Of a DNA stretch of 20,000 bases, positions 1,588 through 19,936 are shown piece after piece. Location: sequence record SRR31156797_601; one strand, given 5' to 3'. The stretch's first letter is position 1. Every line of letters starts with the position of its first letter. The notes beneath the pieces were generated by a model that worked only from the letters and a program-made list of their open reading frames with translations, had not been told where the DNA came from and did not search any database. The position numbers and the translations under genes are program-made.

Positions 1588-1614
1588 TATAAAATAAATA
1601 TAAGGTGTAGTAAA

Positions 1615-5030: not shown

Positions 5031-5097
5031 CAAATTATGCAATATATTTGTCAGTTCACGAATTTCTTTTATATGCAGTGTTATTTTCAGATATATT
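5031..5097 (+). promoter_or_regulatory. Putative LytTR-binding repeat pair and -10 box upstream of the lipoprotein GH3
   Basis: CAAATTA (5031) and CAGTTCACG (5052) start 21 bp apart; TATATT at 5092-5097. Same geometry as the site at 11199-11265. Confidence 0.6.
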
Positions 5098-5133
5098 GTT
5101 TCCATCAGCTTTTTAATACGGAAGGAGAATAAA

Positions 5134-7686
5134 ATGTCAAGACTAAGAAAAATACTATCATTATTATTAGTATTTGTAATGGTTGTGTCAGTTTTTGTAG
5201 GATGTGCAAGCGACGAAAGTGCAGATCCAACTGCTGAACCAACTCAAGAATCTACAGATGTATCTTCAGAAGAGGCTACAGACGAATCTACAGATTCTAA
5301 TGAAGACGAAGTTGTACTAAAGGACCCAGTAGCAGGTGAAGAACTGGGCTCTGGAGAAGTAAAATGGTCAGAAGAGGAATCAAGTGACGGTTACATGGTG
5401 GTAACAAACGAAGGTGGCGCAACACTTTCATATTCAACTGAATCAGGTGTATCACTTATTCAAGTTGATGGTTATGCATTCAAAGACCTGAACAAAAACG
5501 ACATGTTAGATCAATATGAAGACTGGCGTGAGCCAACAGAGGCAAGAGTACAGAACTTAGCTTCACTTGTTACTATTGAAGATATAGCTGGACTTATGCT
5601 ATATAGTTCTCACCAGATGAGCATAGGGGAAGAACTTAGCGAAGACCAAATTGCGTTTTTAGAAGATGGCGGAAGAGCAGTGCTAAATGCTGCGTCAGCA
5701 ACATCTGCAGAAAATACAGCAAAGTGGAATAATGCACTTCAAGCATATGCAGAAAGCACAACTTTTGGTATTCCAGTAAATACAAGTTCAGACCCTAGAA
5801 CTACAGGTATTTCTCTATGGCCGTCAAACTTGGCTTTGGCAGCAACATTTGAACCAGAATTGGCAAAACAGTCTGGAGAAATTCTTTCTCAAGAATATAG
5901 ATTGCTAGGTATTGGAACATATCTAGGTCCACAAATTGATCTTTCAACTGAACCAAGATGGATTAGAAATGATGGAACATTTGGTGAAGATCCAGCATTA
6001 TCAAGAGATATGTCTAACGCTTTTGTAAGTGGAATGCAATCAACATATGACGAAGATGGAACGGACCTTGGTTGGGGCGAAGACAGCATGAATGCAATGA
6101 TTAAACACTGGCCAGGTGATGGTGCTGGAGAAGGCGGTCGTGAATCACATACAAGGACTGGTAATGGTACTGTTTACCCAGGTGATTCATTTGAATCACA
6201 TCTAATCCCATTTGTTGATGGTGGATTAGATCTTGATAGTGAAACTGGTTCAGCAACTGCTATAATGGCATCATATTCTATTGCTTACGGTCTTGAAGAA
6301 GAGCAATACGGCGAAGAAGTAGGATCTGCATTTAGTGAATACAAAATAAAGGATTTATTGCGCGGTGATTACGGTTACGAAGGTGTTGTATGTACAGACT
6401 GGGGAGTACTTAATGGACCAGATGATCCATTCGGTATTACTGGTTTATGGACATCATGGGGTGCAGAAGATATGACAACACCAGAACGTATATATACTGT
6501 AATTATGGCTGGTGTAGACCAATTTGGAGGATACAACAGTAGTGCTGAGGTAATAGAAGCATATGAAATCGGTATTGATGAAATAGGTGAAGAAGCAATC
6601 GATGCAAGATTCAGAGAATCTGCTGTAAGATTACTTAGAAATGTATTTACAATCGGTCTATTCGAGAACCCATATACAGATTCAGTAGAGGCTGCAGAAG
6701 TAGTTGGAAACGAAGAATTTGTTGCACTAGGATATGAAGCACAGCAAAAATCAGTTGTAATGATTAAGAATGAAGGTAATGTAATTAAAGAATCTACAAC
6801 TGATGAAAAACCAACAGTTTATATTCCAATGGTTTATTCGGCAGGAGCATCATCATTATTTGGTGCAACGTCAGCTAGTTGGAATTTACCAGTTGATATT
6901 GTAGTTGCAAGTGAATACTTTAATGTTGTAACAGATGAGCTAGGCGAGCCAAGCGGGGAAGTAGATGCTGATGGAAATGCTACATGGACTCTAGATGACG
7001 TTATTCGTGCATCAGCGGAAGAACTAGCAGAATGTGATTATGCATTACCAATAATTAGCAGTCCTCAAAACTATTCAACAGGATTCAATATAGTTGGATA
7101 TGATCTGGAAACAGAGCAATACATACCAATGTCACTACAATATGGTGAATACACAGCAGATTCCGAATATGTAAGAACGGAATCAATATCAGGTGAAATT
7201 ATTGAAGTAGAGGAAACTGGAACATACGGTGTACAAGTAGTTGAGCAAAAAGAAAATCGTTCCTACTTTGGTCAGACTGCAAATGTTACTAATTCAAGTG
7301 ATTTAGACGTAGTTTTATATGCTGTTGAAAATATGCCTGAAGACAAACCTGTAATTGTTGTTGTCAATACAAGTTCATCATTTATTGTTAATGAATTTGA
7401 AAGTCAAGTTGATTCAATTATATTGAACTTTGGTGTAAGTGATGAAGCAGTACTTGATGTTGTATCAGGTAAATATGAACCATCAGGTTTACTTCCACTA
7501 CAATTCCCAGCAAATATGGATACAGTAGAAGCTCAATATGAAGATGTGTCAAGGGATATGGAATGTCACGTAGACAGCGAAGGAAACACATATGACTTTG
7601 CATTTGGTATGAACTGGTCTGGCGTAATCGATGATGAGCGTGTAGCAACATATGCTGTTGCCGCTATAACAGAACCAACTAATTAA
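5134..7686 (+). CDS. GH3 beta-glycosidase, lipoprotein
   Basis: Signal peptide with lipobox VFVG-C24, acidic T/S/E/D linker, DLNKNDMLDQYEDWR motif, GTFGEDP, KHWPG, nucleophile motif CTDWG, PSGLLP. RBS AAGGAG. Confidence 0.9.
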   Translation: MSRLRKILSLLLVFVMVVSVFVGCASDESADPTAEPTQESTDVSSEEATDESTDSNEDEVVLKDPVAGEELGSGEVKWSEEESSDGYMVVTNEGGATLSYSTESGVSLIQVDGYAFKDLNKNDMLDQYEDWREPTEARVQNLASLVTIEDIAGLMLYSSHQMSIGEELSEDQIAFLEDGGRAVLNAASATSAENTAKWNNALQAYAESTTFGIPVNTSSDPRTTGISLWPSNLALAATFEPELAKQSGEILSQEYRLLGIGTYLGPQIDLSTEPRWIRNDGTFGEDPALSRDMSNAFVSGMQSTYDEDGTDLGWGEDSMNAMIKHWPGDGAGEGGRESHTRTGNGTVYPGDSFESHLIPFVDGGLDLDSETGSATAIMASYSIAYGLEEEQYGEEVGSAFSEYKIKDLLRGDYGYEGVVCTDWGVLNGPDDPFGITGLWTSWGAEDMTTPERIYTVIMAGVDQFGGYNSSAEVIEAYEIGIDEIGEEAIDARFRESAVRLLRNVFTIGLFENPYTDSVEAAEVVGNEEFVALGYEAQQKSVVMIKNEGNVIKESTTDEKPTVYIPMVYSAGASSLFGATSASWNLPVDIVVASEYFNVVTDELGEPSGEVDADGNATWTLDDVIRASAEELAECDYALPIISSPQNYSTGFNIVGYDLETEQYIPMSLQYGEYTADSEYVRTESISGEIIEVEETGTYGVQVVEQKENRSYFGQTANVTNSSDLDVVLYAVENMPEDKPVIVVVNTSSSFIVNEFESQVDSIILNFGVSDEAVLDVVSGKYEPSGLLPLQFPANMDTVEAQYEDVSRDMECHVDSEGNTYDFAFGMNWSGVIDDERVATYAVAAITEPTN

Positions 7687-7751
7687 TATAAGTAAAAAGT
7701 AGTTATCTCCTAACTTATAAGTAGACCTACTTGAACTTAATATCAAGTAAC

Positions 7752-7802
7752 TGACATGATGCAATTAATGAAGTAATATTTGTTAATTGCATCTGTCATT
7801 TT
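7752..7802 (+). terminator. Terminator hairpin after the lipoprotein GH3
   Basis: TGACA-t-GATGCAATTAA ... TTAATTGCATC-TGTCA followed by TTTT. Confidence 0.65.
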
Positions 7803-7951
7803 GATGTAATGAATATCATGGATAATTGATTTAAATGTATCAAACATATATATTCTTCTCAGTTAGATGTTAGGTGAAACTGTTGCTTAATTGTATTTTA
7901 AAACTTACCAATAATTAAAATTTGACTAATTATTATACAATATTTAGACAA

Positions 7952-7979
7952 TTGACAAACTAATCCTAGATGCTATTAT
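7952..7979 (+). promoter_or_regulatory. Sigma-A promoter for the LytTR regulator / kinase / glf unit
   Basis: TTGACA (7952-7957), 16-bp spacer, extended -10 TG-c-TATTAT (7974-7979); GGAGG RBS before the TTG start at 8014. Confidence 0.7.
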
Positions 7980-8013
7980 TATAGTTAAAGGTTTATATTT
8001 ATGGAGGGATACC

Positions 8014-8721
8014 TTGATTAAAGTTGCGATTGTTGATGACGATATTACCATCCAAAACATGCTAACTAGCTATATAGAAAAATATAAAAAGCAGAGTGAA
8101 TTGGTATTCAACATTAAGACATTTGACGATGCAAAACAGATAATTAGCCCATACAAGAGCGTATATGATGTCATTTTTATGGATATAGAAATGAAAGAAA
8201 CAGACGGTCTGGCTGCTGCTGAAAAAATACGAGAAGCAGATGAAAAGGTAATAATTATTTTTGTTACAAATTCAACAGAGCATGCTATTAAAGGATTCAA
8301 AGTTAATGCACTTAGCTATATTGTAAAACCTATATCCTATATAGACTTTGCTCAGCAATTAGATAGAATAGTAAAAAAGCTGGAATATAGTAATAATACA
8401 TATGTTTTGGTAAAGTCGAATAGTGAAATTATCCGACTAGCTATATCAAAAATTGCGTATATGGAAAGTGTAAAGCATACGGTTATAATTCATATGGAGA
8501 ATGAGAACATCACTATTTACAGTTCGTTAAAAGCTCTGGAAAACAAACTGGAAAAATATCATTTTGCCAGATGTAATAGCTGTTATTTGGTAAATCTGGC
8601 TCATGTAGAAAAAATAGAAAAAGATAATGTTATTATCTGCGGGGTTACTCTCGCTCTGAGCAGACCCAAGAAAAAAGCATTTGTAAATGCTTTAACTGAG
8701 TATATAGGTGGTGAATGCTGA
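8014..8721 (+). CDS. LytTR family DNA-binding response regulator (RR1)
   Basis: Receiver domain (IAIVDDD-like VAIVDDD, FMDIEM phospho-Asp, FVT, YIVKP) and LytTR domain (FARCNSCYLVNL, LSRPKKK). TTG start. Confidence 0.92.
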   Translation: MIKVAIVDDDITIQNMLTSYIEKYKKQSELVFNIKTFDDAKQIISPYKSVYDVIFMDIEMKETDGLAAAEKIREADEKVIIIFVTNSTEHAIKGFKVNALSYIVKPISYIDFAQQLDRIVKKLEYSNNTYVLVKSNSEIIRLAISKIAYMESVKHTVIIHMENENITIYSSLKALENKLEKYHFARCNSCYLVNLAHVEKIEKDNVIICGVTLALSRPKKKAFVNALTEYIGGEC

Positions 8722-10037
8722 TGACTATAGAAATACCTAGAATATATACTTCTATTGCAGAAGTTATGGCTTGCTTAATATATATTATCCCTTTGAAAAA
8801 AAGGCACACTGGTCTGACCCTGTATTTAAATATACTGGTATTTATGTCAGCAATAATAGCAATTCAACTTATTGCAGGAACCCTGCCAATTATATATTGG
8901 ATTCCTGGAATGGTAATGAGTATGTCAGCTATGTACTTTTTTATTTATAGCGTATGCGACTTATCAATGAAACAAGCTGGTTTGTTTTTTATAAAGGCTT
9001 TTTTATTGGCTGAATTTGCTGCAGCGATAGAATGGCAGTTCTATTATTATTTGATTTATAAAGGTGTGACTCATACTTGGATACTTTCATCTATTGTAAT
9101 GATCAGTGTATATACATTGTTGTTTACTATTGCTAGGTTTGTAGATGCTAAGAAGGCTTTGGAGGACTGTAATTTAGAAGTCTCTACAAGAGATTTAATT
9201 AATGCTGTGATTATAGGATTAGCTACTTTTTCAATTAACAACATAAATTTTATTGTTGATAGTCCATTTGTTGTTAATGGAGTGGGAGCCAATATAATGT
9301 ATTTAAGAACACTTATTGACTTGAGCGGTCTTCTTGTATTATTTGCATGGAATGAGCAAAGGCGTGAAATGCATGCAAATCACGAAATTAAAGCGATTAA
9401 TCACATTTTAAGAAGTCAATACGATCAATATCAAAGGTACAAAGATAGCGTACAGATTATTAACAGGAAATATCATGATTTGAAACACCAGATAGCTTTG
9501 ATTAGATCAGAAACTGATTCAGCTAAAAAGGAAGAATACCTTCGAGAATTTGATTATGCAGTAGAAGTATACGGTTCACAATATGACACAGGAAACTCTG
9601 TGCTTGATACCATCTTGACAGGCAAAAGTCATTATTGTAAGGAGCATGACATAAAGCTAAGCTGTATAGCGAATGGTGAGCTGCTTGATTTTATGCTTGT
9701 AATGGATGTTTGCTCTATTTTTGGTAATGCACTTGATAATTGCATTGAATGCGTTGAAACAATTGATGATATTAATAAACGCATTATTCGAGTTGTAGTA
9801 TTTGAAAAAAATAATTATTTGATGATGAGGTTCGAAAATTATTTTGAGCAGGAATTAATCTTTAAGGACGGATTGCCAGAAACAACAAAGTCTAATAATA
9901 ATTATCATGGATTTGGCATTAAGAGTATTAAAAAGACTATAGAAAAATATGATGGCAATCTTACAATAAAAACTGACAATAATTGGTTTGTTATGAAGAT
10001 ATTAATATCATTGTCTCAGGATAATATAAAACAATGA
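8721..10037 (+). CDS. AgrC-like GHKL sensor histidine kinase with a multi-TM sensor domain
   Basis: About 6-7 hydrophobic segments, H-box RKYHDLKHQI, N-box IFGNALDN, G-box HGFGIKSI. TGATG overlap with RR1 (alternative start 8715). Confidence 0.92.
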   Translation: MTIEIPRIYTSIAEVMACLIYIIPLKKRHTGLTLYLNILVFMSAIIAIQLIAGTLPIIYWIPGMVMSMSAMYFFIYSVCDLSMKQAGLFFIKAFLLAEFAAAIEWQFYYYLIYKGVTHTWILSSIVMISVYTLLFTIARFVDAKKALEDCNLEVSTRDLINAVIIGLATFSINNINFIVDSPFVVNGVGANIMYLRTLIDLSGLLVLFAWNEQRREMHANHEIKAINHILRSQYDQYQRYKDSVQIINRKYHDLKHQIALIRSETDSAKKEEYLREFDYAVEVYGSQYDTGNSVLDTILTGKSHYCKEHDIKLSCIANGELLDFMLVMDVCSIFGNALDNCIECVETIDDINKRIIRVVVFEKNNYLMMRFENYFEQELIFKDGLPETTKSNNNYHGFGIKSIKKTIEKYDGNLTIKTDNNWFVMKILISLSQDNIKQ

Positions 10038-10054
10038 TTTATAAGGTTTGATAT

Positions 10055-11146
10055 ATGTATGATTATATAATAGTAGGTTCAGGGCTGTATGGTTCAGTCT
10101 TTGCTAATGAAGTAAAAAAGAGAGGCAATAAATGCCTTGTCATTGAAAAAAGAGATCATATAGGCGGAAATGTATTTACAAAAAATATTCACGGTATTAA
10201 TGTTCATATATATGGTGCACATATTTTCCATACTGATGATGAGATAATATGGAACTATATTAATCAATTTGCTGATTTTAATAATTATATAAATAGTCCA
10301 CTAGCTAATTATAAGGGTACATATTATAATCTTCCCTTTAATATGAATACTTTTTACAAAATGTGGGGTAAAGCGACTCCTGCTGAAGTTGCAGATATAA
10401 TAAACGAGCAGCGAAAAGAAATAGCAGATACACCAAAGAACCTAGAAGAGCAAGCGATTAGCTTAGTAGGCAGAGATGTGTATGAAAAATTAATCAAGGG
10501 CTATACCGAGAAACAGTGGGGCAGGAAATGTACAGAGCTGCCGCCCTTTATAATAAAACGTCTGCCTGTAAGGATGACCTACAACAATAATTATTTCAAT
10601 GACAAATTCCAAGGCGTACCTATTGGAGGGTATACAAATATTATAAATAAAATGCTTGAAGGCTGTGAAATCATTACAGGAACTGATTACTTGGATGAAA
10701 AAGAAAAGTGGGATAGTTTGGGTAAAAGAGTTTTGTATACTGGTGCAATTGATGCATATTTTAATTATGAATACGGAGCACTTGAATACAGAAGCATTAG
10801 ATTCCATAATGAAACTTTGGATATTGAAAATTTTCAAGGAAATGCTGTTGTTAATTATACAGATATTGAAACTCCGTATACGAGAATAATAGAACATAAA
10901 CATTTTGAGTTCTCTAAAACTAATAAAACAATTATCAGCAAAGAATACAGCGAGGAATGGGCAGTTGATAAAGACCCTTATTATCCTATTAATGACGATT
11001 ATAATAATAGCATATATTCTAAATATTTGAAATTAGCATTAAAAGATAAAAAAACAATCTTTGGCGGCAGGCTTGGAGAATATAAGTATTACAATATGGA
11101 TACAATTATCAAAAAGGCTTTGGAGAAAGCAAGTATTGAGATTTAA
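10055..11146 (+). CDS. glf: UDP-galactopyranose mutase
   Basis: FAD motif IVGSGLYG, HIGGN, YGAHIFHT, YTEKQWG, TRIIEHKHF, PYYP, GGRLGEYKYYNMD. Confidence 0.96.
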   Translation: MYDYIIVGSGLYGSVFANEVKKRGNKCLVIEKRDHIGGNVFTKNIHGINVHIYGAHIFHTDDEIIWNYINQFADFNNYINSPLANYKGTYYNLPFNMNTFYKMWGKATPAEVADIINEQRKEIADTPKNLEEQAISLVGRDVYEKLIKGYTEKQWGRKCTELPPFIIKRLPVRMTYNNNYFNDKFQGVPIGGYTNIINKMLEGCEIITGTDYLDEKEKWDSLGKRVLYTGAIDAYFNYEYGALEYRSIRFHNETLDIENFQGNAVVNYTDIETPYTRIIEHKHFEFSKTNKTIISKEYSEEWAVDKDPYYPINDDYNNSIYSKYLKLALKDKKTIFGGRLGEYKYYNMDTIIKKALEKASIEI

Positions 11147-11198
11147 TACTGCTGATTTATTTATAATTGGTACTATTTGTTTTTTCGTTTAGTGCTTG

Positions 11199-11265
11199 CA
11201 AATTAAGTTGTTAAAACTACCGTTCACGGAATTATTTCTTGCATATTTACAGCTTATGATACTAT
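11199..11265 (+). promoter_or_regulatory. Putative LytTR-binding repeat pair and extended -10 upstream of the GT2 operon
   Basis: CAAATTA (11199) and CCGTTCACG (11220) start 21 bp apart; TG-a-TACTAT with the hexamer at 11260-11265. Offsets identical to the 5031 site. Confidence 0.6.
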
Positions 11266-11385
11266 TAAAAGCATCACAAATGGTGGTGTTTTAATATTTA
11301 ATGCTTAAAAACTTGGATTTTTACTTAAAGATTAATAATTAAGTGAAAAATTTAGTAATTAACATTTTTTATATGGAGAATGAGG

Positions 11386-12402
11386 ATGAATATTTTATCA
11401 GTAGTTATACCTAGCTATAATTCTGAAAGCTATTTTGCCAATTGCATTGAATCTTTGCTGAAAAGTGGTGATGGAATTGAGATTTTGATTGTAAATGATG
11501 GATCTTCAGATAGAACTGGAGAGATAGCTGACAATTATGCAAAAAAATATCCAAATAAAATAAAAACTATTCATCAAGAGAACTCTGGTCATGGCGGAGC
11601 CATTAATACAGGGCTTAAACATGCAACAGGAAAATATTTTAAAGTTGTTGATAGTGACGACTGGGTTAATCCTGATGCGCTTAAAAAAGTTGTTAATAAA
11701 CTTAATAGCTTTATTGTCGATGATAAAAGAGTAGATTTGGTACTTGCAAACTTTGTATATGACAAAGCAAGCAGCTCTAAAAAGAAAGTGATGAATTATA
11801 AAGGTATAATACAACAAGACCAAATAATAACGTGGAATGATGTGAAAAAGTTTAAGACATCAAGATATATTTTGATGCATTCTGTAATCTATAGCACTGA
11901 CATACTTAAAGAGTGCAAACTTGAACTGCCAAAGCACACTTTTTATGTTGATAATCTATTTGTATATTTACCGCTTCAATATGTTAATACCATGTATTAC
12001 ATAGACGAATGTGTCTATCACTATTTTATCGGTAGGGACGAGCAATCTGTAAACGAGAAAAATATGCTCAAAAGAATAGACCAGCAGATATTGGTTAACA
12101 AAATCATGATTAAAAGTGTTGATTTAAGCACTATACAACCTACTAGTAAAAGAGAGTATATGATTCACTATTTAAATGTAGTAACTACGGTTTCATCTGT
12201 TTTACTGATTAAAAAAGGAACTGCTGAATCAAGATGTAAGAATAAGGATTTGTGGAAAAGTATCAAGACAGCGGATTCAAAATTATATAGTAAAATGCGG
12301 AAAACTGTACTTGGCAGGATTATTCACCTACCAGGTTATTTGGGCAGAAAAATAACATTGTATGCTTACAAGCAGGCGCAAAAAAATGTTGGATTTAACT
12401 AA
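11386..12402 (+). CDS. Family 2 glycosyltransferase (GT-A fold, no TM segments)
   Basis: SVVIPSYN, IVNDGSSD, GHGGAINTG, DxD motif VDSDDW, HTFYVDN, YFIGRDEQSV. GGAG spacing favours ATG 11386 over 11380. Confidence 0.92.
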   Translation: MNILSVVIPSYNSESYFANCIESLLKSGDGIEILIVNDGSSDRTGEIADNYAKKYPNKIKTIHQENSGHGGAINTGLKHATGKYFKVVDSDDWVNPDALKKVVNKLNSFIVDDKRVDLVLANFVYDKASSSKKKVMNYKGIIQQDQIITWNDVKKFKTSRYILMHSVIYSTDILKECKLELPKHTFYVDNLFVYLPLQYVNTMYYIDECVYHYFIGRDEQSVNEKNMLKRIDQQILVNKIMIKSVDLSTIQPTSKREYMIHYLNVVTTVSSVLLIKKGTAESRCKNKDLWKSIKTADSKLYSKMRKTVLGRIIHLPGYLGRKITLYAYKQAQKNVGFN

Positions 12403-12438
12403 AAATTTCAGTGATAAAATAAGGAAAGAAGAGGGAAT

Positions 12439-14826
12439 ATGACAGATTATAATATTATTATAAATGAAATGACCCTAGAAGAAAAAGCCTCTTTGCTTTC
12501 AGGAAAAGATTTCTGGAAAACAAGAGAAATAAAGAGACTGAACGTTCCTCAGATGGCACTAGCTGACGGACCTCATGGACTTAGGAAACAAGCAGAAGCA
12601 GGTGACCATTTAGGGCTTGTAAAAGGTGTTGATGCAACTTGCTTTCCAACCTCTGCAACTGTAGCAAATAGTTGGGACGTAAAGCTATGCGAAGAAATCG
12701 GACAAGCACTTGGAAAAGAAGCAGCTCATCATGATGTGAATGTTTTGCTTGGACCTGCACTAAATATAAAAAGGAATCCATTGTGCGGTCGTATTTTCGA
12801 ATATTACTCTGAAGATCCTTATCTATCCGGAAAAATGGCAGCAGCATCTACAAAAGGGATTCAAAGCAATGGCGTTTCAGTATGCCTGAAACATTTCGCA
12901 GCAAATAATCAAGAATACCTAAGAATGACAAATGATTCTATTGTAGATGAGAGAACTCTGCGAGAAATTTATCTTACTGGTTTTGAAATAGCAGTTAAAG
13001 ATGGTAAAGCAAAGTCAGTAATGTCATCTTATAATAAGATAAACGGCGTATATGCTCACGAAAATAAAAAACTTCTCAGAGATATATTGGTTGATGAATG
13101 GGGGTTTGAAGGAATCGTAGTATCTGATTGGGGCGGAAGCAATGATAGTGTCAGAGGTGTCAAAGCAGGATCTCACCTAGAGATGCCCGCAACTGGTACT
13201 GACAGCAGAGATATTCTGGTTGAGGCAGTGAAAAATGGTGAATTAGAGGAAAGTGAACTGGATGCTAGAGTACTGGAATATTTACAGTTTTTATATGAAG
13301 TCCAATTAGATGAGCAAGTCGAAGTTGATTACGAAAGTCATCATGAATTAGCTAGAAAAGCCGCAGAAGAATCTACAGTGCTTTTGAAAAATGATAATGC
13401 ACTTCCTTTATCTAGCGGTACAAAGGTTGCAGTAATCGGTGATTTTGCTGATTATCCAAGATATCAGGGAGCAGGCTCCAGTTTAGTCAGCCCTTATAAG
13501 CTTGAAGGTACTCTTGATGTTATTGAACAAGCAGATTTAGAATTAGTTGGTTACGCCAAAGGATATGACAGAACTGGCAAAACAGATAAAAACAAGATAT
13601 CAGAAGCTGTGGAGATTGCAAAAAAAGCTGATGTAGCATTGCTGTATATCGGACTTATTGAAGTTGATGAAGTAGAGGGCTATGACAGACCTCATATGAA
13701 GATTGCACAAAGCCATATTGACCTTCTTGAAGCAGTTGAAAAAGCAGCAAAGAAGACTGTTGTAGTATTAAGCGGCGGTGCAGCAATTGAAATAAACTGG
13801 GATAAGCATTGCGATGCTATAGTTCACGGTTATTTGTCAGGACAATCTGGTGCTAGTGCAATGCTTAATGTATTGACTGGTAAAGTTAATCCAAGCGGAA
13901 AACTAAGTGAAACTTATCCTTTAGTTTATGAAGATTGTCCGACTGCTAAATACTTTCCTGGGGCTGAAAGAACAAGTGAATATAGAGAAGGTATTTATGT
14001 AGGATACAGATATTATGACAAATGTAATGTGCCAGTAAAATACCCCTTTGGATTTGGACTTAGTTATACTACTTTTGAATACAGTGACTTGGATATTAAG
14101 GCAGGTAGTATTACTTGCAAAATTACAAATACTGGAGATATAGCCGGTAGTGAAATCGTTCAATTATATATTGGTAAAGAGCAAAATAAGATTCACAGAG
14201 CAAAAAAAGAATTAAAAGGATTCGAAAAGGTATTCCTAAATCCAAAGGAAAGTAAAACAATAACAATTCCTTTCGATGAATATTCATTCAGATATTTTGA
14301 TATCAATGATATGAAATTCAATATAGAAAAAGGTACGTATGAAGTATATATTGGAAGTTCATCACAGGACATTAAATTATCAGGAGAAATAACTGTTGAT
14401 GGAGTAGAGCCAAAAAGTGGGAAAATATCAGAACTAAAAAAGTACTTCGATGGAGATATTAGTGATGTTTCATCAAAAGAATTTGAAAACCTCTATGGGA
14501 AAGCTGTACCGGATGCAAATTGGGATAGAAACAAAGAGCTGGGGATTAATGATTCTGTTAGCCAGATGATTTATGCAAAAAGCGGGATTGCTAGATTTGC
14601 TGTTAAAGTTTTGGGGTGGATGAAAAACAGATCTATTAAAAAAGGTAAACCCGATTTAAATCTATTCTTCCTTTACAATATGCCCTTTAGAGCTATTGCA
14701 AAAATGTCCAATGGAACCATATCAATGGAAATGGTAAGAAAAATATTGATTATTGTAAATGGACATTTTTTCAAAGGGGTAGGCGGATTTATAAAATCGT
14801 TTTTTATATATAAGAGGAGGAGGTGA
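12439..14826 (+). CDS. GH3 beta-glycosidase, cytoplasmic, with FN3-like domain and a basic amphipathic C-terminal extension
   Basis: ADGPHGLR, FEYYSEDP, KHFAANNQE, nucleophile motif VSDWGG, EGIYVGYRYY, PFGFGLSYT; no signal peptide. Confidence 0.93.
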   Translation: MTDYNIIINEMTLEEKASLLSGKDFWKTREIKRLNVPQMALADGPHGLRKQAEAGDHLGLVKGVDATCFPTSATVANSWDVKLCEEIGQALGKEAAHHDVNVLLGPALNIKRNPLCGRIFEYYSEDPYLSGKMAAASTKGIQSNGVSVCLKHFAANNQEYLRMTNDSIVDERTLREIYLTGFEIAVKDGKAKSVMSSYNKINGVYAHENKKLLRDILVDEWGFEGIVVSDWGGSNDSVRGVKAGSHLEMPATGTDSRDILVEAVKNGELEESELDARVLEYLQFLYEVQLDEQVEVDYESHHELARKAAEESTVLLKNDNALPLSSGTKVAVIGDFADYPRYQGAGSSLVSPYKLEGTLDVIEQADLELVGYAKGYDRTGKTDKNKISEAVEIAKKADVALLYIGLIEVDEVEGYDRPHMKIAQSHIDLLEAVEKAAKKTVVVLSGGAAIEINWDKHCDAIVHGYLSGQSGASAMLNVLTGKVNPSGKLSETYPLVYEDCPTAKYFPGAERTSEYREGIYVGYRYYDKCNVPVKYPFGFGLSYTTFEYSDLDIKAGSITCKITNTGDIAGSEIVQLYIGKEQNKIHRAKKELKGFEKVFLNPKESKTITIPFDEYSFRYFDINDMKFNIEKGTYEVYIGSSSQDIKLSGEITVDGVEPKSGKISELKKYFDGDISDVSSKEFENLYGKAVPDANWDRNKELGINDSVSQMIYAKSGIARFAVKVLGWMKNRSIKKGKPDLNLFFLYNMPFRAIAKMSNGTISMEMVRKILIIVNGHFFKGVGGFIKSFFIYKRRR

Positions 14827-14831
14827 GATAA

Positions 14832-15365
14832 ATGATTAAGTTGATCAGGAATTTTAAAGAAAAAAATGCGGAATTATATGAGTTTATCATGTTCAATATT
14901 TTAAGCAACATTGCAACGATTACGAATTTTGCTGTATTGAATATTGGCAACAGTATTTTATTTAAGTCTTTTGCAGATAAAGCCTTTGATTTTTGGATTT
15001 TTAATTATACTGTTGAAAGCGGCGGACTTGGTGGATTTTTGGCTTTTCTAACTAGTTTTTTCTGCGCACAGGCTGTAAACTTTGTTGTTCAGCGAAAGCT
15101 GGTATTCAATTCTAATAATAAGCTGGGATTAGCAATACCGATATATATTTTAACGGTTATAGTAGTGTATATCATATGCATGTATATTCCAACAATAATA
15201 TTAGAGCCAATATCATCAGTTGTTGGAGACTTTTGGGGAGTTAACTTAACTAATGCTATCAATATTTTAGTGCAGGTAATAATTATTTATCCAGTACTGA
15301 AATTTGTGGTAATGAAAAAAATACCAAACGACGAAGTAGTGGTAGTTACAGAATATAACGATTAG
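14832..15365 (+). CDS. GtrA-like small membrane protein (putative lipid-linked sugar flippase)
   Basis: 177 aa with about 4 hydrophobic helices; VNFVVQRKLVF resembles the GtrA N-x-x-x-N/Q-R-x-x-V-F motif; C-terminal KFVV. RBS AGGAGG lies in the end of the upstream gene. Confidence 0.65.
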   Translation: MIKLIRNFKEKNAELYEFIMFNILSNIATITNFAVLNIGNSILFKSFADKAFDFWIFNYTVESGGLGGFLAFLTSFFCAQAVNFVVQRKLVFNSNNKLGLAIPIYILTVIVVYIICMYIPTIILEPISSVVGDFWGVNLTNAINILVQVIIIYPVLKFVVMKKIPNDEVVVVTEYND

Positions 15366-15385
15366 AATTTGTGAAGGAGGATATT

Positions 15386-18277
15386 ATGAGCAAAGACAAG
15401 AAAAAGAAGACAGGTAAGATTATACTAATAATTGGTTTAGTGCTGGTTTTAATAATTAATGCCGGATTGATAATTTTTGAAGGTCATGCGAACCTTTATC
15501 TAGGTCAGGGAGATGTAGTTGTTGAGAATGCATCAGGAACAGAAAATTGGGATAGTGAATACTATACAATGGATTATGACAGTTCCGAGGCACTTGAAGC
15601 AGCGGCTGCAGAACTGGTTCAAGACATTTCATATGAAGGTTTTGTACTGTTGAAAAATAATGGTACACTGCCTCTTGCTGAAAATTCAGCATTAACATTA
15701 TTAGGCAGAGGGAGTGCAGACCCTGTTTATGGTGGTTCAGGATCAGGAGCCGCTTCTACAGAAGGATTGGTAGATATTAAGAAAGGCTTAACTGATTCAG
15801 GGTTTGAAATTAACGAGACTGTATATGCAATATTATCAGAATATGCTGCTTATGAACTTAATGGAACTACTAGAGTTTATACTAATCCAAGGTCTGAAAT
15901 AGTAATGGATAGTCCAAAAAAGTCATCATATAATTCCGGTGAAATGCCAATAGAAAACTATACAGATGAAGCAATTGATAGTTTCAAAGATTATAACGAT
16001 GCAGCAATCATTACAATCAGCCGACCAGCAGGTGAAGGTGGAGACCTTTCTCAGGATGTGGAAGACTGGGAAGAACATTACGAAGATGGACAGCATCAAT
16101 TAGAGCTGACATATGATGAAAAACAAGCTATCGAATTAGCTAAGGACAATTTTGAGAACGTTATTGTTTTGATTAACTCAAGTGCTGTAATGGAACTTGG
16201 TGAATTGGAAGCAGATGAAGGCGTCGATGCAATATTATGGGTTGGATTCCCTGGAAAAACTGGATTTAACTCTGTTGGAGCTATACTAGACGGACGTGTA
16301 ACACCATCTGGACATACAGTTGATATTTATGCAGCAGACTTTACAAAAGACCCTACTTTCGTAAACTTTGGAGATTATGAATACAAGAATATCTCCAAGA
16401 AAAATGCAATAGGTGATGCTACATTTGTGCAGTATGAAGAAGGTATTTATGTAGGATACAGATACTATGAAACAGCTGCGGTTGAAGGATTTATTGATTA
16501 TGACGAAGCTGTTGTATATCCATTTGGATATGGCTTAAGTTACACAACTTTTGATTGGGAGATTGAGAGTCAATCATTAGGTTCAACGACTGAAGATATT
16601 ACAATAGATGTTAAGGTAACAAATACAGGTGACTATTCAGGTAAAGACGTAGTTCAAGTGTATTTCTCAGCTCCATATTATGAGGGAGGCATTGAAAAAT
16701 CTGAAGTAGTACTTGCAGACTTTGCAAAGACTAGTTTGCTGGCTCCAGGTGAATCAGATGTGGTTACTTTGACATTCCCTGTTGAAGACATGGCATCATA
16801 TGACTACAAAGTTGAAAAAGCATATGTACTAGATGAAGGCGATTATGAAATCAGAATACAAACTGATTCACATAATATGAAAGAAGGAATTGATGCAATA
16901 ACATACTCAGTTTCAAAAACTCTTATCTATAATGAAGGCAATGCACGCTCATCAGACGTAGTAGCTGCAACAAATCAATTTGATGATGTTTCAGCGATGT
17001 TTACAGATACAAAAACTGAAGGTTATGCAACAAATATGTCTCGTGCTGACTTTGAAGGAACATTCCCAACTAAGCCTATGGCAGTTGATAAGGAAGCCAG
17101 TGATGAAATTATAGCGGGATTCCAGCCATATGTTGTGGCTGATAATGAAGACCCAGATGCTGAGATGCCAACAACTGGAGAAAATAATGGACTCATGTTG
17201 ATTGACTTAAGAGGTAAAGATTATGATGATCCATCATGGGATTTACTGCTTGATCAGATTGAAGCAGCTGAGATAATAAGTGTTATCCTTGACGGTGCTT
17301 ATACATCTTTGGAAGTAGAATCTGTTGCAAAGCCAAAAACAATTGATATAGACGGACCTGCTGGCTTAAGCTCATTTATGGGAACAGAACTAAAAGGTAC
17401 AGCGTACCCTTCAGAAGTAGTTATTGCTTCAACATATAATACAGATTTAGCAAATGAAATGGGACTGATGGTAGGTAACGAATCTCTGGATATGGGAGTC
17501 AGTGGTTGGTATGCACCAGCACTTAACGTTCACCGTTCACCATTTGCAGGACGTAACTTCGAATACTATTCTGAAGACCCAATTATAAGCGGCAAAATGA
17601 CTGAAGCAGTTATTGAAGGCGCAGCAGAAAAAGGATTGTATGCATACATCAAGCACTTTGCACTAAATGACCAGGAAACAAACCGTGTAAACAATGGTAT
17701 TGCTACATGGGCAAATGAACAGGCTATAAGAGAAATATATCTGAAAGGTTATGAAAAGGCTATTAAAAACGCTACAACAACCATCAAATATATCGGTGAT
17801 GAAAATGGCACAATAGCGGAAAAAGAAATGAATGCAGCTACAGCTATTATGAGCTCATTCAATAGAATAGGTACTACATGGGCAGGCGGCAGCATTGCTC
17901 TGATGGAAAATGTTTTGAGACAAGAATGGGGCTTTGAAGGCGTAGCTATTTCAGACTTTAACCTATATGATTACATGTATACAGATCAAGGCATTGCAGC
18001 AGGTACAGATTACTTTATTACATTCTCATCTATGAAGTCTCTGGAAGATCAAACAAGCGCAACTGCAGTAACTAACCTAAGAAGAACTGCTCATAGACTA
18101 TTCTATACAGTTGTTAACAGTAACGCTATGAATGGCATAATTCCGGGAACAACAATAACCTTTAAAATGGCAACATGGAAAAAGATACAATATATTGTAG
18201 ATATACTAATAATATTGGGCTTGGCAGGCTATTTTGTATCAAAATTGTTGAAAAAGAAAAAACAAAAGACTGCTTAA
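15386..18277 (+). CDS. GH3 beta-glycosidase with permuted domain order, anchored by N- and C-terminal TM helices
   Basis: The usual C-terminal domain comes first (EGFVLLKNNGTLPL, GGSGSG, EGIYVGYRYY, PFGYGLSYT), followed by the barrel (DGPAG, GRNFEYYSEDP, KHFALNDQE, ISDFN). Lys-flanked hydrophobic helices at both ends. AAGGAGG at 15374-15380 supports ATG 15386 over GTG 15371. Confidence 0.92.
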   Translation: MSKDKKKKTGKIILIIGLVLVLIINAGLIIFEGHANLYLGQGDVVVENASGTENWDSEYYTMDYDSSEALEAAAAELVQDISYEGFVLLKNNGTLPLAENSALTLLGRGSADPVYGGSGSGAASTEGLVDIKKGLTDSGFEINETVYAILSEYAAYELNGTTRVYTNPRSEIVMDSPKKSSYNSGEMPIENYTDEAIDSFKDYNDAAIITISRPAGEGGDLSQDVEDWEEHYEDGQHQLELTYDEKQAIELAKDNFENVIVLINSSAVMELGELEADEGVDAILWVGFPGKTGFNSVGAILDGRVTPSGHTVDIYAADFTKDPTFVNFGDYEYKNISKKNAIGDATFVQYEEGIYVGYRYYETAAVEGFIDYDEAVVYPFGYGLSYTTFDWEIESQSLGSTTEDITIDVKVTNTGDYSGKDVVQVYFSAPYYEGGIEKSEVVLADFAKTSLLAPGESDVVTLTFPVEDMASYDYKVEKAYVLDEGDYEIRIQTDSHNMKEGIDAITYSVSKTLIYNEGNARSSDVVAATNQFDDVSAMFTDTKTEGYATNMSRADFEGTFPTKPMAVDKEASDEIIAGFQPYVVADNEDPDAEMPTTGENNGLMLIDLRGKDYDDPSWDLLLDQIEAAEIISVILDGAYTSLEVESVAKPKTIDIDGPAGLSSFMGTELKGTAYPSEVVIASTYNTDLANEMGLMVGNESLDMGVSGWYAPALNVHRSPFAGRNFEYYSEDPIISGKMTEAVIEGAAEKGLYAYIKHFALNDQETNRVNNGIATWANEQAIREIYLKGYEKAIKNATTTIKYIGDENGTIAEKEMNAATAIMSSFNRIGTTWAGGSIALMENVLRQEWGFEGVAISDFNLYDYMYTDQGIAAGTDYFITFSSMKSLEDQTSATAVTNLRRTAHRLFYTVVNSNAMNGIIPGTTITFKMATWKKIQYIVDILIILGLAGYFVSKLLKKKKQKTA

Positions 18278-18318
18278 TGACATAATTCTAATAGTATCAT
18301 AAACTATAATATTACTTT

Positions 18319-18376
18319 GTAAAAAAAGTCAAGCTATTGGTAGAAATTCTCATGTGTCAATGCTTGACTTTTTTAC
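18319..18376. terminator. Rho-independent terminator, potentially bidirectional, ending the GT2-GH3-GtrA-GH3 operon
   Basis: AAAAAAAGTCAAGC-t-ATTGG ... TCAAT-GCTTGACTTTTTT with an A-tract before and a T-tract after the stem. Confidence 0.8.
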
Positions 18377-18413
18377 TATAATAAGATGAACAATTATTCA
18401 TAAATTCTTAAAA

Positions 18414-18441
18414 TTGAACAGTAATATGTTTATGATATAAT
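18414..18441 (+). promoter_or_regulatory. Sigma-A promoter for the second LytTR regulator
   Basis: TTGAAC (18414-18419), 16-bp spacer, extended -10 TG-a-TATAAT (18436-18441). Confidence 0.7.
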
Positions 18442-18473
18442 TGTCTGTGAGGAAAACAAGTAAGGAGCATGAT

Positions 18474-19184
18474 ATGCTGAAAATAGCGATTGTTGACGAT
18501 GATCTTCACTATTTAGATATACTAGAATCGCATATTACTCGTTATCGAGACGAAAACAATATAGAGCTGGAGGTAACAACCTTTTCTAGCGGACTGCATT
18601 TGATTATGGACTATAAACCTGTATTTGATATTTTGTTTTTTGATATTGAATTACCTCATATGAATGGTATAGAAGTTGCAAAGCATATTAGAGAAATAGA
18701 TCCTTATGCAGTTATAGTTTTTATAACCAATATGGAGCAATATGCTATAAAAAGTTATGAAGTGAACGCCTATGATTATATGGTTAAGCCAATAGATTAC
18801 TCTCTATTTTCAATTAAATTAAGTGAAATTATTAATTCAATTAACAATACCAGATATCAAGATATATTGATTTCAATAAAAGATGAAAACCATCGGATAA
18901 AAGCAAGTGAGATACTCTTTATTGAGGTAAGAGATCATTTGCTAACTGTACATACAAAAGAAACTGAATATCAGATGTTCAGGTCACTAAAGGAGATAGA
19001 GCAGGAGTTGGAGAATTGCTGCTTTGTGAGGTGCAATAAAAGCTCCATTATTAACCTTCGATGTGTTACCAGAATGCGTGCAGACAGACTTGTTTTACAA
19101 GGTAAATATACTGTTAAAATATCTAGGAGCAGGCGTAAAGAAGTACAAGACGCATTTGTTGAATATTACAGTAATAATATGTAG
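18474..19184 (+). CDS. LytTR family response regulator (RR2), orphan
   Basis: MLKIAIVDDD, FFDIEL, FIT, YMVKP, FVRCNKSSIINL, ISRSRRK. AAGGAG at 18462-18467 places the start at ATG 18474; the ORF-track TTG at 18441 overlaps the -10 box. Confidence 0.92.
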   Translation: MLKIAIVDDDLHYLDILESHITRYRDENNIELEVTTFSSGLHLIMDYKPVFDILFFDIELPHMNGIEVAKHIREIDPYAVIVFITNMEQYAIKSYEVNAYDYMVKPIDYSLFSIKLSEIINSINNTRYQDILISIKDENHRIKASEILFIEVRDHLLTVHTKETEYQMFRSLKEIEQELENCCFVRCNKSSIINLRCVTRMRADRLVLQGKYTVKISRSRRKEVQDAFVEYYSNNM

Positions 19185-19627
19185 TGGTGATTTTGGTATC
19201 ACTTTGGATAATTAGAATTACAGGATACTTTCTTATGTTTAGAATTAGAAATGTATTATTTGAACATACTATTCTGTGTTGTTTAGTTAAAAAATTGAAT
19301 ATTCTGTTACATTGAAAAGAATAAAATAGTCTACTCGATTTTTCTCAATTCACATTAATTCCAAAATTAATTTTTTACCATATTTAAAGTATGAACAGAT
19401 TTAATATCTATTATATCACATATCTAATTATCAGCAATTCCCTATATACTGCATTAATCATTATACTATGTAAAAATACCTAATAAATATAGAAACAAGT
19501 CAATGATAAAGTGCATTGTACACTTAAATATCTGTGATAATAATCTATTTTGCAAACATATCAGGACTTTGCAAAATATTATTGGAAATAACGTATTTAG
19601 GGAGATGATTATTTAGAGGTATTTTTT

Positions 19628-19930: not shown

Positions 19931-19936
19931 AAATTC

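Follow-up and report, generated by a model that had tools for sequence, protein, structure and literature searches.

The question raised by the locus studied here is what common task a small GtrA-like membrane protein, several family-3 glycoside hydrolases (GH3) and a LytTR two-component pair could share when they are encoded side by side in a gut-type Clostridia bacterium. The DNA analysed is a stretch of 20,000 nucleotides, called the window below. An earlier note on it had proposed a membrane glycosylation cycle built on galactofuranose (Galf), with the processing of amphipathic glycosides as another option. Of this interpretation, the GH3/GtrA-like/LytTR system and the amphipathic-glycoside idea are supported by the present results, while the placing of glf and a family-2 glycosyltransferase (GT2) at the core as makers of a Galf-lipid is not. 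In the reading that we prefer, and to which we give a probability of about 45%, the cassette would be a two-sided machine that handles beta-glycosides with their non-sugar part seated in the membrane, either lipid-linked sugars or amphipathic glycosides.

Gene calling and Pfam searches find every gene that had been named, all on the + strand. The first is a GH3 lipoprotein, GH3_1 (5134–7686), with a lipobox-type signal peptide and the Pfam GH3 N and C domains. The LytTR response regulator RR1 (8014–8721; Response_reg 64.8 bits, LytTR 65.7 bits) and a GHKL sensor histidine kinase (8715–10037; HATPase_c_5 109.3 bits) follow, with a gene overlap of 7 bases; the kinase has a multi-helix N-terminal part, with hydrophobic segments within residues 31–146. 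Starting 17 bp past the kinase gene, glf (10055–11146) encodes a UDP-galactopyranose mutase, which scores 413.8 bits against TIGR00031 (cut-off 303.75 bits) and 266.1 bits against Pfam GLF. Next come the genes of a soluble GT2 of 340 aa (11380–12402; Glycos_transf_2 123.2 bits), of the cytoplasmic, beta-glucosidase-type GH3_2 (12439–14826; N, C and Fn3-like domains, without a signal peptide), of the GtrA-like four-helix membrane protein of 177 aa (14832–15365) and of the extracellular GH3_3 (15371–18277), a permuted enzyme in which Pfam places the C domain first, then the Fn3-like and the N domain. These four genes form the tight run that the earlier note had described with gaps of 36, 5 and 20 bp. 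The figures hold if GH3_3 starts at the ATG at 15386, and taking the GTG at 15371 as the start shortens the last gap to 5 bp.

The operon is closed by an intrinsic terminator on the + strand (18319–18376), a hairpin followed by a U run. This element, too, proved real, with a folding energy of −19.7 kcal/mol and a z-score of −5.46, and none of 200 shuffles folds as well; a simple terminator scan missed it because its loop is long. On its 3' side lies an orphan LytTR response regulator, RR2 (18441–19184), assigned by Pfam. Neither a GT-C nor Wzx/Wzy nor a sugar transporter was detected by Pfam from 5.1 to 19.2 kb, which bears out the absence noted before.

We now turn to the conservation of this arrangement. 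The GtrA-like protein, used as query in 301 Lachnospiraceae-family genomes, was found in 30 places in 28 of them; in a phylum-wide sample of 401 genomes, its profile matched in 5. A detailed comparison covered 32 related loci, and two further short loci were added later, which gives 34 places. The GtrA-like gene adjoins a glycosidase gene in 33 of these (31 of the 32 loci and both short ones), L074 being the sole place without such a neighbour. In 25 of the 32 loci, no more than 150 bp separate the GtrA-like gene from a full GH3_2 orthologue, and the doubly anchored GH3, the orthologue of GH3_3, is present in 26. Orthologues of RR1 (37–44% identity) occur in 17 loci and those of the kinase (28–48% identity) in 20. 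Beyond this core set, the genes on the outer flanks vary from genome to genome, and neither in the window nor in the related neighbourhoods does the cassette hold a transporter gene. Judged by these neighbourhoods, the conserved unit consists of the LytTR regulator and the GHKL kinase, a cytoplasmic glycosidase, the GtrA-like four-helix protein and a permuted GH3 anchored at both ends by a transmembrane (TM) helix, with the GtrA-like protein as its invariant centre. The gene arrangement is far from chance, its core recurring in 33 of the 34 GtrA-like places. The inner enzyme is not always a GH3; it is a GH2 in L075 and L083 and a GH43 in L088, and L062 has a GH2 in addition to GH3_2. This swapping suggests the breakdown of varied glycosides rather than one biosynthetic step.

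A literature search found no published description of this cassette, which is apparently an undescribed system, as the earlier note had suspected for the set of GH3 enzymes, GtrA-like protein and LytTR pair lacking a transporter and GT-C of its own. The co-occurrence that it expected across genomes is seen for the GtrA-like protein, the GH3, the permuted GH3 and the LytTR/kinase pair, but not for the GT2, which adjoins the cassette in three of the 32 other loci (L058, L071 and L084), or for glf, which does so in two (L054 and L071).

The earlier note had also counted GH3_1 and RR2 as members, and neither recurs with the cassette in the 32 loci. GH3_1 is the best match of no open reading frame there. 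The full-length LytTR regulators of the related cassettes match RR1, except in L086, which holds the sole LytTR-type protein in the 32 loci with RR2 as best match, about 7 kb from the cassette; the RR2-best match in L082 extends over 82 aa of receiver and belongs to an AraC-type regulator. GH3_1 and RR2 are thus not part of the conserved cassette, and RR1 is the cassette's own regulator. Upstream of the glycosidase operons in the related loci there is a direct-repeat motif, CA[GA]TTT[GA]TG, with a spacing of 20–21 bp. It occurs 17 times, compared with 2.0 in shuffles, and forms 3 spaced pairs, compared with 0.005. This putative operator was not convincingly found in the window, which has no spaced pair. 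Its best half-sites there reach 8.3 (at 11250) and 10.5 (at 5031), compared with 11.3–19.9 for the sites from which the matrix was built.

The GtrA-like protein itself has four hydrophobic helices. Its score against GtrA_DPMS_TM, 24.3 bits, is just under the Pfam cut-off of 26.1 bits, and 29 of 30 orthologues match this family at E ≤ 0.01. The AF2 model (pLDDT 88.8) has as its top three PDB fold matches in Foldseek the dolichyl-phosphate mannose synthase (DPMS) entries 9ep0, 5mlz and 5mm1, with probabilities of 0.93–1.00 and TM scores of 0.56–0.60 over 162–164 columns, but with weak E-values of 0.17–1.1 despite the high probabilities; sequence similarity to DPMS was not detectable. The DPMS membrane domain holds the lipid phosphate next to the soluble catalytic domain. 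A search for fusions yielded 47 long proteins matching the GtrA-like profile. In at least 14 protein clusters, a full GH3_2-type enzyme and, after it, the GtrA-like domain make up one chain, and 5 more of the 47 are partial fusions in the same order. Pfam assigns the N and C domains of GH3 and an Fn3-like domain to all 14 full fusions, and a C-terminal GtrA_DPMS_TM to 11 of them. One of them, P0143, is 54% identical to GH3_2 of the window over 792 residues, after which a short linker leads to the GtrA-like part. The fused proteins are gene predictions from contigs, and some could be frameshift or gene-calling artefacts; the 14 separate clusters, several with 5–19 members, argue against this. 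The fusions and the DPMS-like fold of the model lend support to the idea of a membrane-embedded or amphipathic glycoside.

The two enzymes on either side were then considered. GH3_2 matches the solved beta-glucosidases 8j9f (7.6e-198) and 7ms2 (6.5e-192), both spanning residues 3–655 only. Its residue D230, the Asp of the SDW motif, which we take to be the catalytic nucleophile of the GH3 family, is the same in all 25 sequences that were aligned. Past the matched part there is a C-terminal extension (residues ~660–795, nucleotides ~14416–14826), conserved in 25 orthologues and all-helical in the AF2 model (pLDDT 74–94), for which no PDB match was found. The GH2 and GH43 substitutes end at their known domains without it, so it cannot be a universal docking piece. 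GH3_2 is very near ordinary soluble beta-glucosidases of the cellobiase type, which counts against a two-sided machine, and a plain, soluble beta-glucoside would suit it no less. For GH3_3, solved permuted relatives are 5wug (1.2e-79) and 5k6l (4.7e-65), and the GH3 motifs are intact in 28 aligned sequences. Hydrophobic helices with lysine-rich ends are predicted at residues 11–43 and 938–962, and such helices at both ends are kept in nearly all of 27 proteins of this type. A tether of this kind would keep the enzyme at the membrane surface.

In the two-sided machine that we favour, the LytTR two-component pair would sense at the membrane and act as the switch. The permuted GH3 would trim glycosides at the outer membrane face, the GtrA-like protein would hold or flip the remaining glycoside, and the inner enzyme would take off the last sugar in the cytoplasm, so that the flow would be inward. 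The cytoplasmic glycosidase would be docked on the GtrA-like protein in this organism, the two being fused in some bacteria. The products of glf and the GT2 gene may add sugar again, from the cell interior, to this acceptor or to a related one.

These last two genes carried the earlier reading, in which UDP-Galf comes from Glf, the GT2 builds a Galf- or Glc-lipid for the GtrA-like protein to flip, and the anchored GH3 trims this lipid or passes its sugar on where a GT-C would otherwise act, as a regulated cycle of surface glycosylation and deglycosylation. In the window as well as in L054, L058, L071 and L084, one or both of them do adjoin the cassette, and in L071 they follow each other, glf then GT2, 5 bp apart. 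Three GT2 adjacencies in 32 loci clearly exceed a rough expectation of ~0.2 (about one copy per ~3 Mb genome). In the GT2 tree, L058 and L084 form a clade at 100/99, L071 stands apart and the window GT2 sits on a long branch; cassette-linked GT2s thus come from more than one lineage, which suggests repeated recruitment. Away from the cassette, this subfamily is found next to further membrane proteins that are small or flippase-like, namely LPG_synthase_TM at 4 of 11 loci and, in the Saccharibacteria locus L009, PF06695. The genome G150 has a second GT2 copy about 11 kb from its GtrA-like gene. However, the GT2 is absent from 29 of 32 cassettes and glf from 30, and the subfamily occurs in 245 of the 301 Lachnospiraceae genomes (E ≤ 1e-60) irrespective of the cassette and mostly in housekeeping surroundings; of five genomes with this GT2, four carry no GtrA-like gene of this type. 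The GT2 has no hydrophobic segment, and among solved structures it is closest to soluble GT-A enzymes that act on polymers or proteins, namely GalT1 (5hea, 1.2e-21) and the 'Glycosyl transferase' entries 5tze/5tz8 (4.2e-16), presumably TarS, whereas polyprenyl-phosphate GT2s match far more weakly (DPMS 1.8e-9, sll0501 7.5e-6). The cycle also leaves no role for the cytoplasmic GH3, which accompanies the GtrA-like protein more constantly than any other partner and in places is fused to it, and the GH3s resemble pyranoside beta-glucosidases. We consider the cycle unlikely, and glf and the GT2 are facultative additions rather than the core of the system.

A different option is the uptake and breakdown of a soluble beta-glucoside, which we regard as possible, if somewhat doubtful. 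Here the outer GH3 would shorten oligosaccharides on the surface of the cell, the GtrA-like protein would be a small facilitator or channel, and the docked or fused inner glycosidase would split the product at once and so pull uptake forward. Both GH3s are near solved beta-glucosidases and keep the family motifs, the cassette is without any other transporter, the inner enzyme is exchanged among GH3, GH2 and GH43 as in catabolic loci, and the fusion of enzyme and membrane domain would also suit vectorial uptake. If true, this would give the GtrA family a new role, with ordinary chemistry. On the other hand, we know of no GtrA-family member that carries free sugars, the closest fold is a lipid-phosphate-binding domain, and an outer enzyme tethered at both ends is unusual for enzymes acting on soluble polymers; the literature, in the parts available to us, treats the family as flippases of lipid-linked sugars. 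Relief of the lipid carrier, in which the inner GH3–GtrA pair and the outer GH3 would hydrolyse surplus undecaprenyl-phosphate sugars and free the carrier under envelope stress sensed through LytTR, is a special case of the preferred reading with an endogenous substrate. It would need no transporter and agrees with the DPMS-like fold, with the fused catalytic domain in the same order as in DPMS and with the membrane-embedded kinase. The cassette lacks a polyprenyl-phosphate-type GT2 and GT-C, however, its presence in only about 9% of the sampled family genomes is low for a general envelope-stress function, and GH3 hydrolysis of a sugar-phosphate-lipid is a putative activity, which makes this special case quite improbable. 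Finally, each family is common in Clostridia, and the GtrA-like gene in L074 has no glycosidase neighbour, as one would expect if unrelated beta-glucosidase genes, a stray GtrA and a two-component pair were chance neighbours. This is contradicted by the neighbourhood counts, the pairing being kept in 33 of 34 places despite differing outer flanks, and by the natural fusions, and we give it hardly any credence.

It remains to compare the two-sided machine with the closest known systems. Three-component glycosylation, as described in the available part of PMC7389260, combines a GtrB/CsbB-type GT2, a GtrA/GtcA flippase and a GT-C (GtrC/YfhO/GtlB). As far as that description goes, both systems have a small four-helix GtrA-family protein at the centre and one enzyme on each side of the membrane. 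In the cassette, however, these flanking enzymes are glycoside hydrolases instead of transferases, there is no GT-C, the only GT2 is optional, helix-free and unlike the polyprenyl-phosphate type, and the set includes a LytTR two-component pair of its own. The permuted-topology GH3 subfamily, represented in the accessible portions of its reports by GlyA1 (PDB 5k6l, PMC5104943) and BrGH3A (PMC11233000), shares with GH3_3 the order C domain, Fn3-like, N domain; compared with what is given there, GH3_3 and its orthologues have a TM helix at both ends and stand in a fixed cassette with the GtrA-like protein. Over residues 3 to 655 or 686, GH3_2 aligns with the cytoplasmic three-domain GH3s 8j9f, 7ms2 ('Thermostable beta-glucosidase B') and 5wab (E-values from 7.6e-198 to 1.8e-169), to which it adds the helical extension of ~130 residues and the pairing or fusion with a GtrA-like domain. 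In fold, the GtrA-like model comes closest to the Pyrococcus furiosus DPMS (5mlz, 5mm1, 9ep0). The fusions share with it the order of a soluble catalytic domain, a helical linker and a GtrA/DPMS membrane domain, but here the catalytic domain is a GH3 hydrolase of about 800 aa rather than a GT-A transferase, and the window encodes this enzyme and the membrane domain in separate genes with 5 bp between them.

The window carries thirteen genes on the + strand, and a Pfam and NCBIfam scan recovered every gene family that the earlier note had named in it. GH3_1 (5134-7686), a lipoprotein with the GH3 N and C domains (Pfam), is followed by a two-component pair of the LytTR type, consisting of the first response regulator RR1 (8014-8721, receiver plus LytTR domain) and a GHKL kinase (8715-10037, HATPase_c_5 with a hydrophobic multi-helix N-terminal part), the two genes overlapping by 7 bases. 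Next come glf (10055-11146), which is a UDP-galactopyranose mutase equivalog (TIGR00031, 413.8 bits against a cut-off of 303.75, residues 1-359), and GT2 (11380-12402, 340 aa), in which hydropathy analysis finds no hydrophobic segment. These are followed by GH3_2 (12439-14826), a cytoplasmic GH3 enzyme without a signal peptide, by the 177-aa GtrA-like protein (14832-15365), and by GH3_3 (15371-18277), a permuted GH3 with hydrophobic helices at residues 11-43 and 938-962 and lysine-rich ends. The spacing of this GT2-GH3-GtrA-GH3 run is 36, 5 and 5 bp, the final gap becoming the previously claimed 20 bp when the ATG at 15386 is used. As had also been proposed, the run ends at a terminator, a hairpin at 18319-18376 with a U run; its folding energy is -19.7 kcal/mol (z -5.46), a value equalled by 0 of 200 shuffles. 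Beyond it lies the second LytTR regulator, RR2 (18441-19184). The claim that GT-C, Wzx/Wzy and sugar transporter genes are missing holds, according to Pfam, for the whole GH3_1-to-RR2 stretch.

Upstream of these genes, window 43-4720 is occupied by a sugar cluster with an ABC solute-binding protein (SBP_bac_1 and DUF3502), a tandem pair of DUF1861 proteins (376.9 and 331 bits), which we take to be relatives of the GH130-like beta-mannoside phosphorylases, and a ROK kinase whose best match is the fructokinase ScrK (283.5 bits against a cut-off of 400). GH3_1 may belong with this cluster. Its lipobox is followed by a long acidic low-complexity stretch, and about 270 residues separate its GH3 N domain (168-462) from the matched part of the C domain (736-827). 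At the other end of the window, an open-ended minus-strand ORF of 129 aa (19609-19998, -) has no Pfam or NCBIfam match and is preceded on that strand by a strong terminator-like hairpin (19914-19884).

Using GT2 as the query, 23 loci with 24-56% identity were obtained from Lachnospiraceae, other Clostridia and Saccharibacteria. The GtrA-like gene is present in 0 of the 23, a GH3_2-like gene is nearby in L014 alone, and glf in L002 alone. The GtrA-like query matched 28 of 301 sampled genomes of the family, at 30 places, which is a lower bound, since the corresponding profile found a genome of the family sample (G267) that the single sequence had missed. In a sample across the phylum, the profile matched 5 of 401 genomes. 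For the comparison, 32 loci were fetched, that is, 28 of the 30 family places and four phylum places, and two short places were inspected separately.

The GtrA-like gene adjoins a glycosidase gene in 33 of these 34 places, the sole exception being L074, where a GtrA-family gene has unrelated neighbours. A full GH3_2 orthologue (49-58% identity) is found <=150 bp from it in 25 of the 32 loci, and in L058 the GH3_2 gene beside it is truncated by the contig end. The inner enzyme is a GH2 in L075 and L083, a GH2 plus GH3_2 in L062 and a GH43 in L088; in L060 and L087 a GH3_3-type gene is the immediate neighbour, and in both short loci a GH3 is. The doubly anchored GH3_3 type occurs in 26 of the 32 loci; four of the six misses end at a contig edge (L058, L065, L081, L085), and two are without GH3_3 (L054, L074). 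Orthologues of RR1 and of the kinase are present in 17 and 20 of the 32 loci, respectively. Farther out, the neighbours vary by genome and include chemotaxis receptors, sigma factors, DNA polymerase subunits and defence genes. From this recurrence it follows that the conserved unit, called the cassette below, consists of the two-component pair, the inner glycosidase, the GtrA-like protein and the anchored GH3.

The module proposed in the earlier note is thereby trimmed. Its GtrA-like, GH3 and LytTR/kinase genes do recur together, but GT2 (3 of 32 loci; L058, L071, L084) and glf (2 of 32; L054, L071) are optional. Two of its three GH3 types belong to the core, while no orthologue of GH3_1 is found in any of the 32 loci. 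Similarly, RR1 is retained but RR2 is not: the full-length LytTR regulators in the cassettes are RR1 matches, and the only LytTR-type match that is best to RR2, in L086, lies ~7 kb away from the cassette.

Cassette variants that have GH2 or extra unknown genes also contain small membrane proteins of 135-143 aa without a Pfam family (L061 14101-14511; L062 6783-7214; L075 12987-13418; L083 8597-9004). The idea that these represent a free-standing form of the C-terminal extension of GH3_2 was rejected, as BLASTP gave no similarity and the proteins are hydrophobic. Unknown proteins of 361-552 aa are located inside the cassettes of L061 and L064.

The GtrA-like protein of the window scores 24.3 bits against PF04138, the GtrA/DPMS transmembrane domain (cut-off 26.1, E 3.8e-5), and has no NCBIfam match; 29 of 30 orthologues reach E <= 0.01 with this Pfam model (GtrA_DPMS_TM), 7.7e-9 being the best value. 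Hydropathy analysis gives four hydrophobic stretches. The AF2 model (pLDDT 88.8) has four long helices preceded by a short one at the N-terminus, and the basic residues lie at both termini and in the loop that joins helices 2 and 3. Among the Foldseek matches listed for this model, the top three are DPMS entries (9ep0, 5mlz and 5mm1), with probabilities of 0.93-1.00, TM values of 0.56-0.60 over 162-164 columns, and weak E-values of 0.17-1.1. The sequence profile, run against solved structures, gave a single match at chance level. To our knowledge, DPMS is the only solved member of the GtrA/DPMS membrane-domain family; its membrane domain holds the lipid phosphate next to the catalytic domain.

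The GtrA-like profile also matched 47 long proteins, which were classed by means of purpose-built GH3_2 and GtrA-like profiles. In 14 of them (928-1161 aa), a full GH3_2-type enzyme is followed by a whole GtrA-like domain. Five are partial fusions with the same order, six combine the GtrA-like domain with fragmentary or permuted GH3 pieces, and 22 are without a GH3_2 part. According to Pfam, all 14 full fusions contain the GH3 N, GH3 C and Fn3-like domains, and 11 of the 14 have a C-terminal GtrA_DPMS_TM domain. Several fusion clusters contain 5-19 member sequences. One fused protein, P0143, has 54% identity to the GH3_2 of the window across 792 residues, then a short basic linker, and then the GtrA-like part. 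Because such natural fusions exist, the GH3_2 and GtrA-like genes of the window, which are 5 bp apart, can be considered to form one working unit. The fusions also place the GH3 inside the cell, and therefore the N-terminus of the GtrA-like protein inside too. Hydropathy, the AF2 model, the basic residues and the fusions all point to the same predicted topology, with four membrane helices and both ends cytoplasmic.

Concerning the two glycosidases, GH3_2 matches the Pfam GH3 N and C domains with 135.3 and 157.9 bits, and GH3_3 with 97.6 and 86.3 bits. No NCBIfam equivalog cut-off was reached, the best score being 719.8 bits against 1300 for exo-alpha-(1->6)-L-arabinopyranosidase. Residues 3-655/686 of GH3_2 match solved beta-glucosidases (8j9f, 7.6e-198; 7ms2, 6.5e-192; 5wab, 1.8e-169), and the aspartate of the SDW motif (D230) and the KH motif are invariant across 25 orthologues. 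The last ~130 residues are conserved as well. This C-terminal extension has no match among solved structures, forms eight helices in the AF2 model (pLDDT 87.9, pTM 0.92), and is also present in ~800-aa GH3s whose named sources are Lachnoanaerobaculum gingivalis, Fusibacter bizertensis and Thiospirochaeta perfilievii. In GH3_3, the Pfam domains have the permuted order C domain (92-363), Fn3-like (426-500) and N domain (658-802); the protein matches the solved permuted enzymes 5wug and 5k6l, and the KHFALNDQE and EWGF...D motifs are retained in 28 GH3_3 sequences.

A further observation concerns the C-terminal hydrophobic helix of GH3_3. Around residues ~936-944 (nt ~18176-18202), it contains a Trp followed eight positions later by an Asp, and both are kept in most of the 28 aligned sequences. 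Such a charged residue could serve as a point of contact with the GtrA-like protein.

As to the regulation, 67 stretches upstream of related glycosidase operons contain the word CA[GA]TTT[GA]T 17 times, where 200 shuffles give 2.0 on average and never more than 6; three pairs are 20-21 bp apart, against a shuffle mean of 0.005. The candidate LytTR operator is made up of direct repeats of CA[GA]TTT[GA]TG followed by an A-rich stretch, at a spacing of 20-21 bp, and it is seen in L064, L072, L073, L084, L086, L087, L089 and others. Paired, spaced direct repeats are the layout of LytTR operators. The candidate operator was not found in the window's own sub-clade. Within the window, a matrix derived from the related loci yields only half-sites, which are weak (11250 and 5031), and no spaced pair; a direct search for repeats, covering four intergenic regions, turned up a single weak pair (14 nt, 51 bp apart) upstream of GT2. 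Control of the window operon by RR1 is suggested by the gene order alone. No RNA run was listed for 11380-18277, and one DNA run contains 0.38 of the sampled words. Two weak half-site-like words sharing TTATGATACT, at 11250-11263 (+) upstream of GT2 and at 18293-18306 (-) upstream of RR2, may be due to chance. Among the window proteins of >=80 aa, Pfam finds no AgrB/AgrD-like pheromone genes.

We now turn to GT2, whose subfamily is present in 245 of the 301 family genomes at E <= 1e-60, mostly in single copy and typically among housekeeping genes such as mutY. Its closest solved relatives are soluble GT-A enzymes, namely GalT1 (5hea, 1.2e-21) and the 'Glycosyl transferase' entries 5tze/5tz8 (4.2e-16), presumably TarS, while the matches to polyprenyl-phosphate GT2s are far weaker (DPMS, 1.8e-9; sll0501, 7.5e-6; ArnC-type, 8.6e-6). 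GT2 adjoins the cassette in the window and in L058, L071 and L084, and it lies ~11 kb away in G150. This adjacency exceeds a rough chance estimate of ~0.2 in 32 loci, and the cassette-linked GT2s span more than one lineage in the tree, so that the link between GT2 and the cassette is real but optional. The same applies to glf (window, L054, L071). Extra GT2 copies were considered as another sign of a link, two copies being present in 9 of the 28 genomes that have a cassette and in 14 of the remaining 273. This was discarded, because in five of the two-copy cassette genomes neither copy is on the cassette contig and genome size may explain the enrichment.

Some features of the wider GT2 family can be mentioned here. 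An LPG_synthase_TM (flippase-like) gene follows GT2 in 4 of 11 loci examined. A second conserved trio, composed of a GT2 from the sub-clade at 42-46% identity, a conserved soluble 182-202-aa protein without a Pfam family and an LPG_synthase_TM protein (L011 3496-6160; L016 9076-11838; also L013 and L015), may be a separate module for glycolipid synthesis and flipping. Five Saccharibacteria loci (L004, L005, L008, L009, L019) have a GT2 of the Lachnospiraceae type at 50% identity, and the one in L009 (about 9974-11017) comes directly after a small membrane protein of family PF06695 ('small multidrug export'). Both Saccharibacteria sequences included in the tree (L004, L009) nest within the Lachnospiraceae group, which, judged from these sequences, looks like a transfer across phyla.

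The reading of the cassette that we prefer, with a probability of about 0.45, and hence tentatively, is that of a two-sided machine acting on beta-glycosides that are embedded in the membrane by their non-sugar part. GH3_3, pinned at both ends, would trim such a glycoside on the outside, the GtrA-like protein would hold or flip the trimmed product, and the inner glycosidase, docked on or fused to the GtrA-like domain, would take off the last sugar. Candidate substrates are endogenous lipid-linked sugars on the one hand, and plant glycolipids or saponin-like glycosides on the other. This reading is suggested by the anchored outer enzyme, the inner enzyme fused to, or presumably docked on, a DPMS-like domain and the lack of a transporter, together with the membrane-embedded sensor kinase and the fact that the inner enzyme can be swapped between GH3, GH2 and GH43. 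It includes as a special case the relief of sequestered undecaprenyl phosphate, which would suit a domain related to one that holds a lipid phosphate; we regard this case as very unlikely. The uptake of a soluble beta-glucoside via the GtrA-like protein would agree with the beta-glucosidase relatives of GH3_2, and the anchoring of GH3_3 and the DPMS-like fold point to a membrane-bound substrate; on balance this option is unlikely.

The Galf-lipid cycle around GT2 and glf, put forward in the earlier note, can draw on links to the cassette that are real, and it has to face the small number of cassettes that have either gene; it appears quite improbable. Another option considered was lipid-linked glycosyl transfer by retaining glycosidases, without a nucleotide sugar or a glycosyltransferase. 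Here, a retaining cytoplasmic GH3 on the DPMS-type domain would move glucose, from for example cellobiose, onto polyprenyl phosphate, in a step that would parallel the action of DPMS with GDP-mannose. The GtrA-like domain would flip the product, and the outer retaining GH3, lying flat on the membrane via its two helices, would hand the sugar to a surface acceptor. We judge such a scheme highly improbable. That the genes are chance neighbours is barely credible in view of the 33 of 34 places with an adjoining glycosidase and of the fusions.

As far as we know, every role described for a GtrA-family protein is in surface glycosylation, as the partner of a glycosyltransferase. In this cassette, a member of the family is tied to a glycoside hydrolase on each face of the membrane, and in some bacteria the inner one is fused to it. 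In the full texts searched outside subscription journals, no paper was found to describe a GtrA-family protein that is either paired with a GH3 or fused to one. If the two-sided machine is correct, it would show how Lachnospiraceae of the gut and rumen handle membrane-embedded glycosides, be they their own lipid-linked ones or plant glycolipids and saponin-like compounds, and it would give the GtrA/DPMS membrane domain a second type of catalytic partner. Since the cassette is small, self-contained and regulated, and since GH3s with the extension occur in cultured species, the question is directly testable.

Finally, the cassette can be compared to known systems. In the classical three-component system, the polyprenyl-phosphate GT2 has C-terminal membrane helices, whereas the GT2 of the window has no hydrophobic segment and this type of GT2 is absent from 29 of the 32 related cassettes. 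The outer-face GT-C of that system has no counterpart among the 14 window proteins or the 74 flanking proteins of related loci that were scanned. If the glycosyl transfer scheme were true, glycosidases would replace both the GT2 and the GT-C. The permuted domain order of GH3_3 is shared with the GlyA1 subfamily (PMC5104943, PMC11233000). Unlike the GlyA1-subfamily enzymes, as far as is known, GH3_3 has a hydrophobic segment at each end, as do nearly all orthologues. The component families are all known; the architecture, in which a GtrA/DPMS domain is flanked by a hydrolase on either side and placed under a LytTR switch, is new as far as the searched literature shows.
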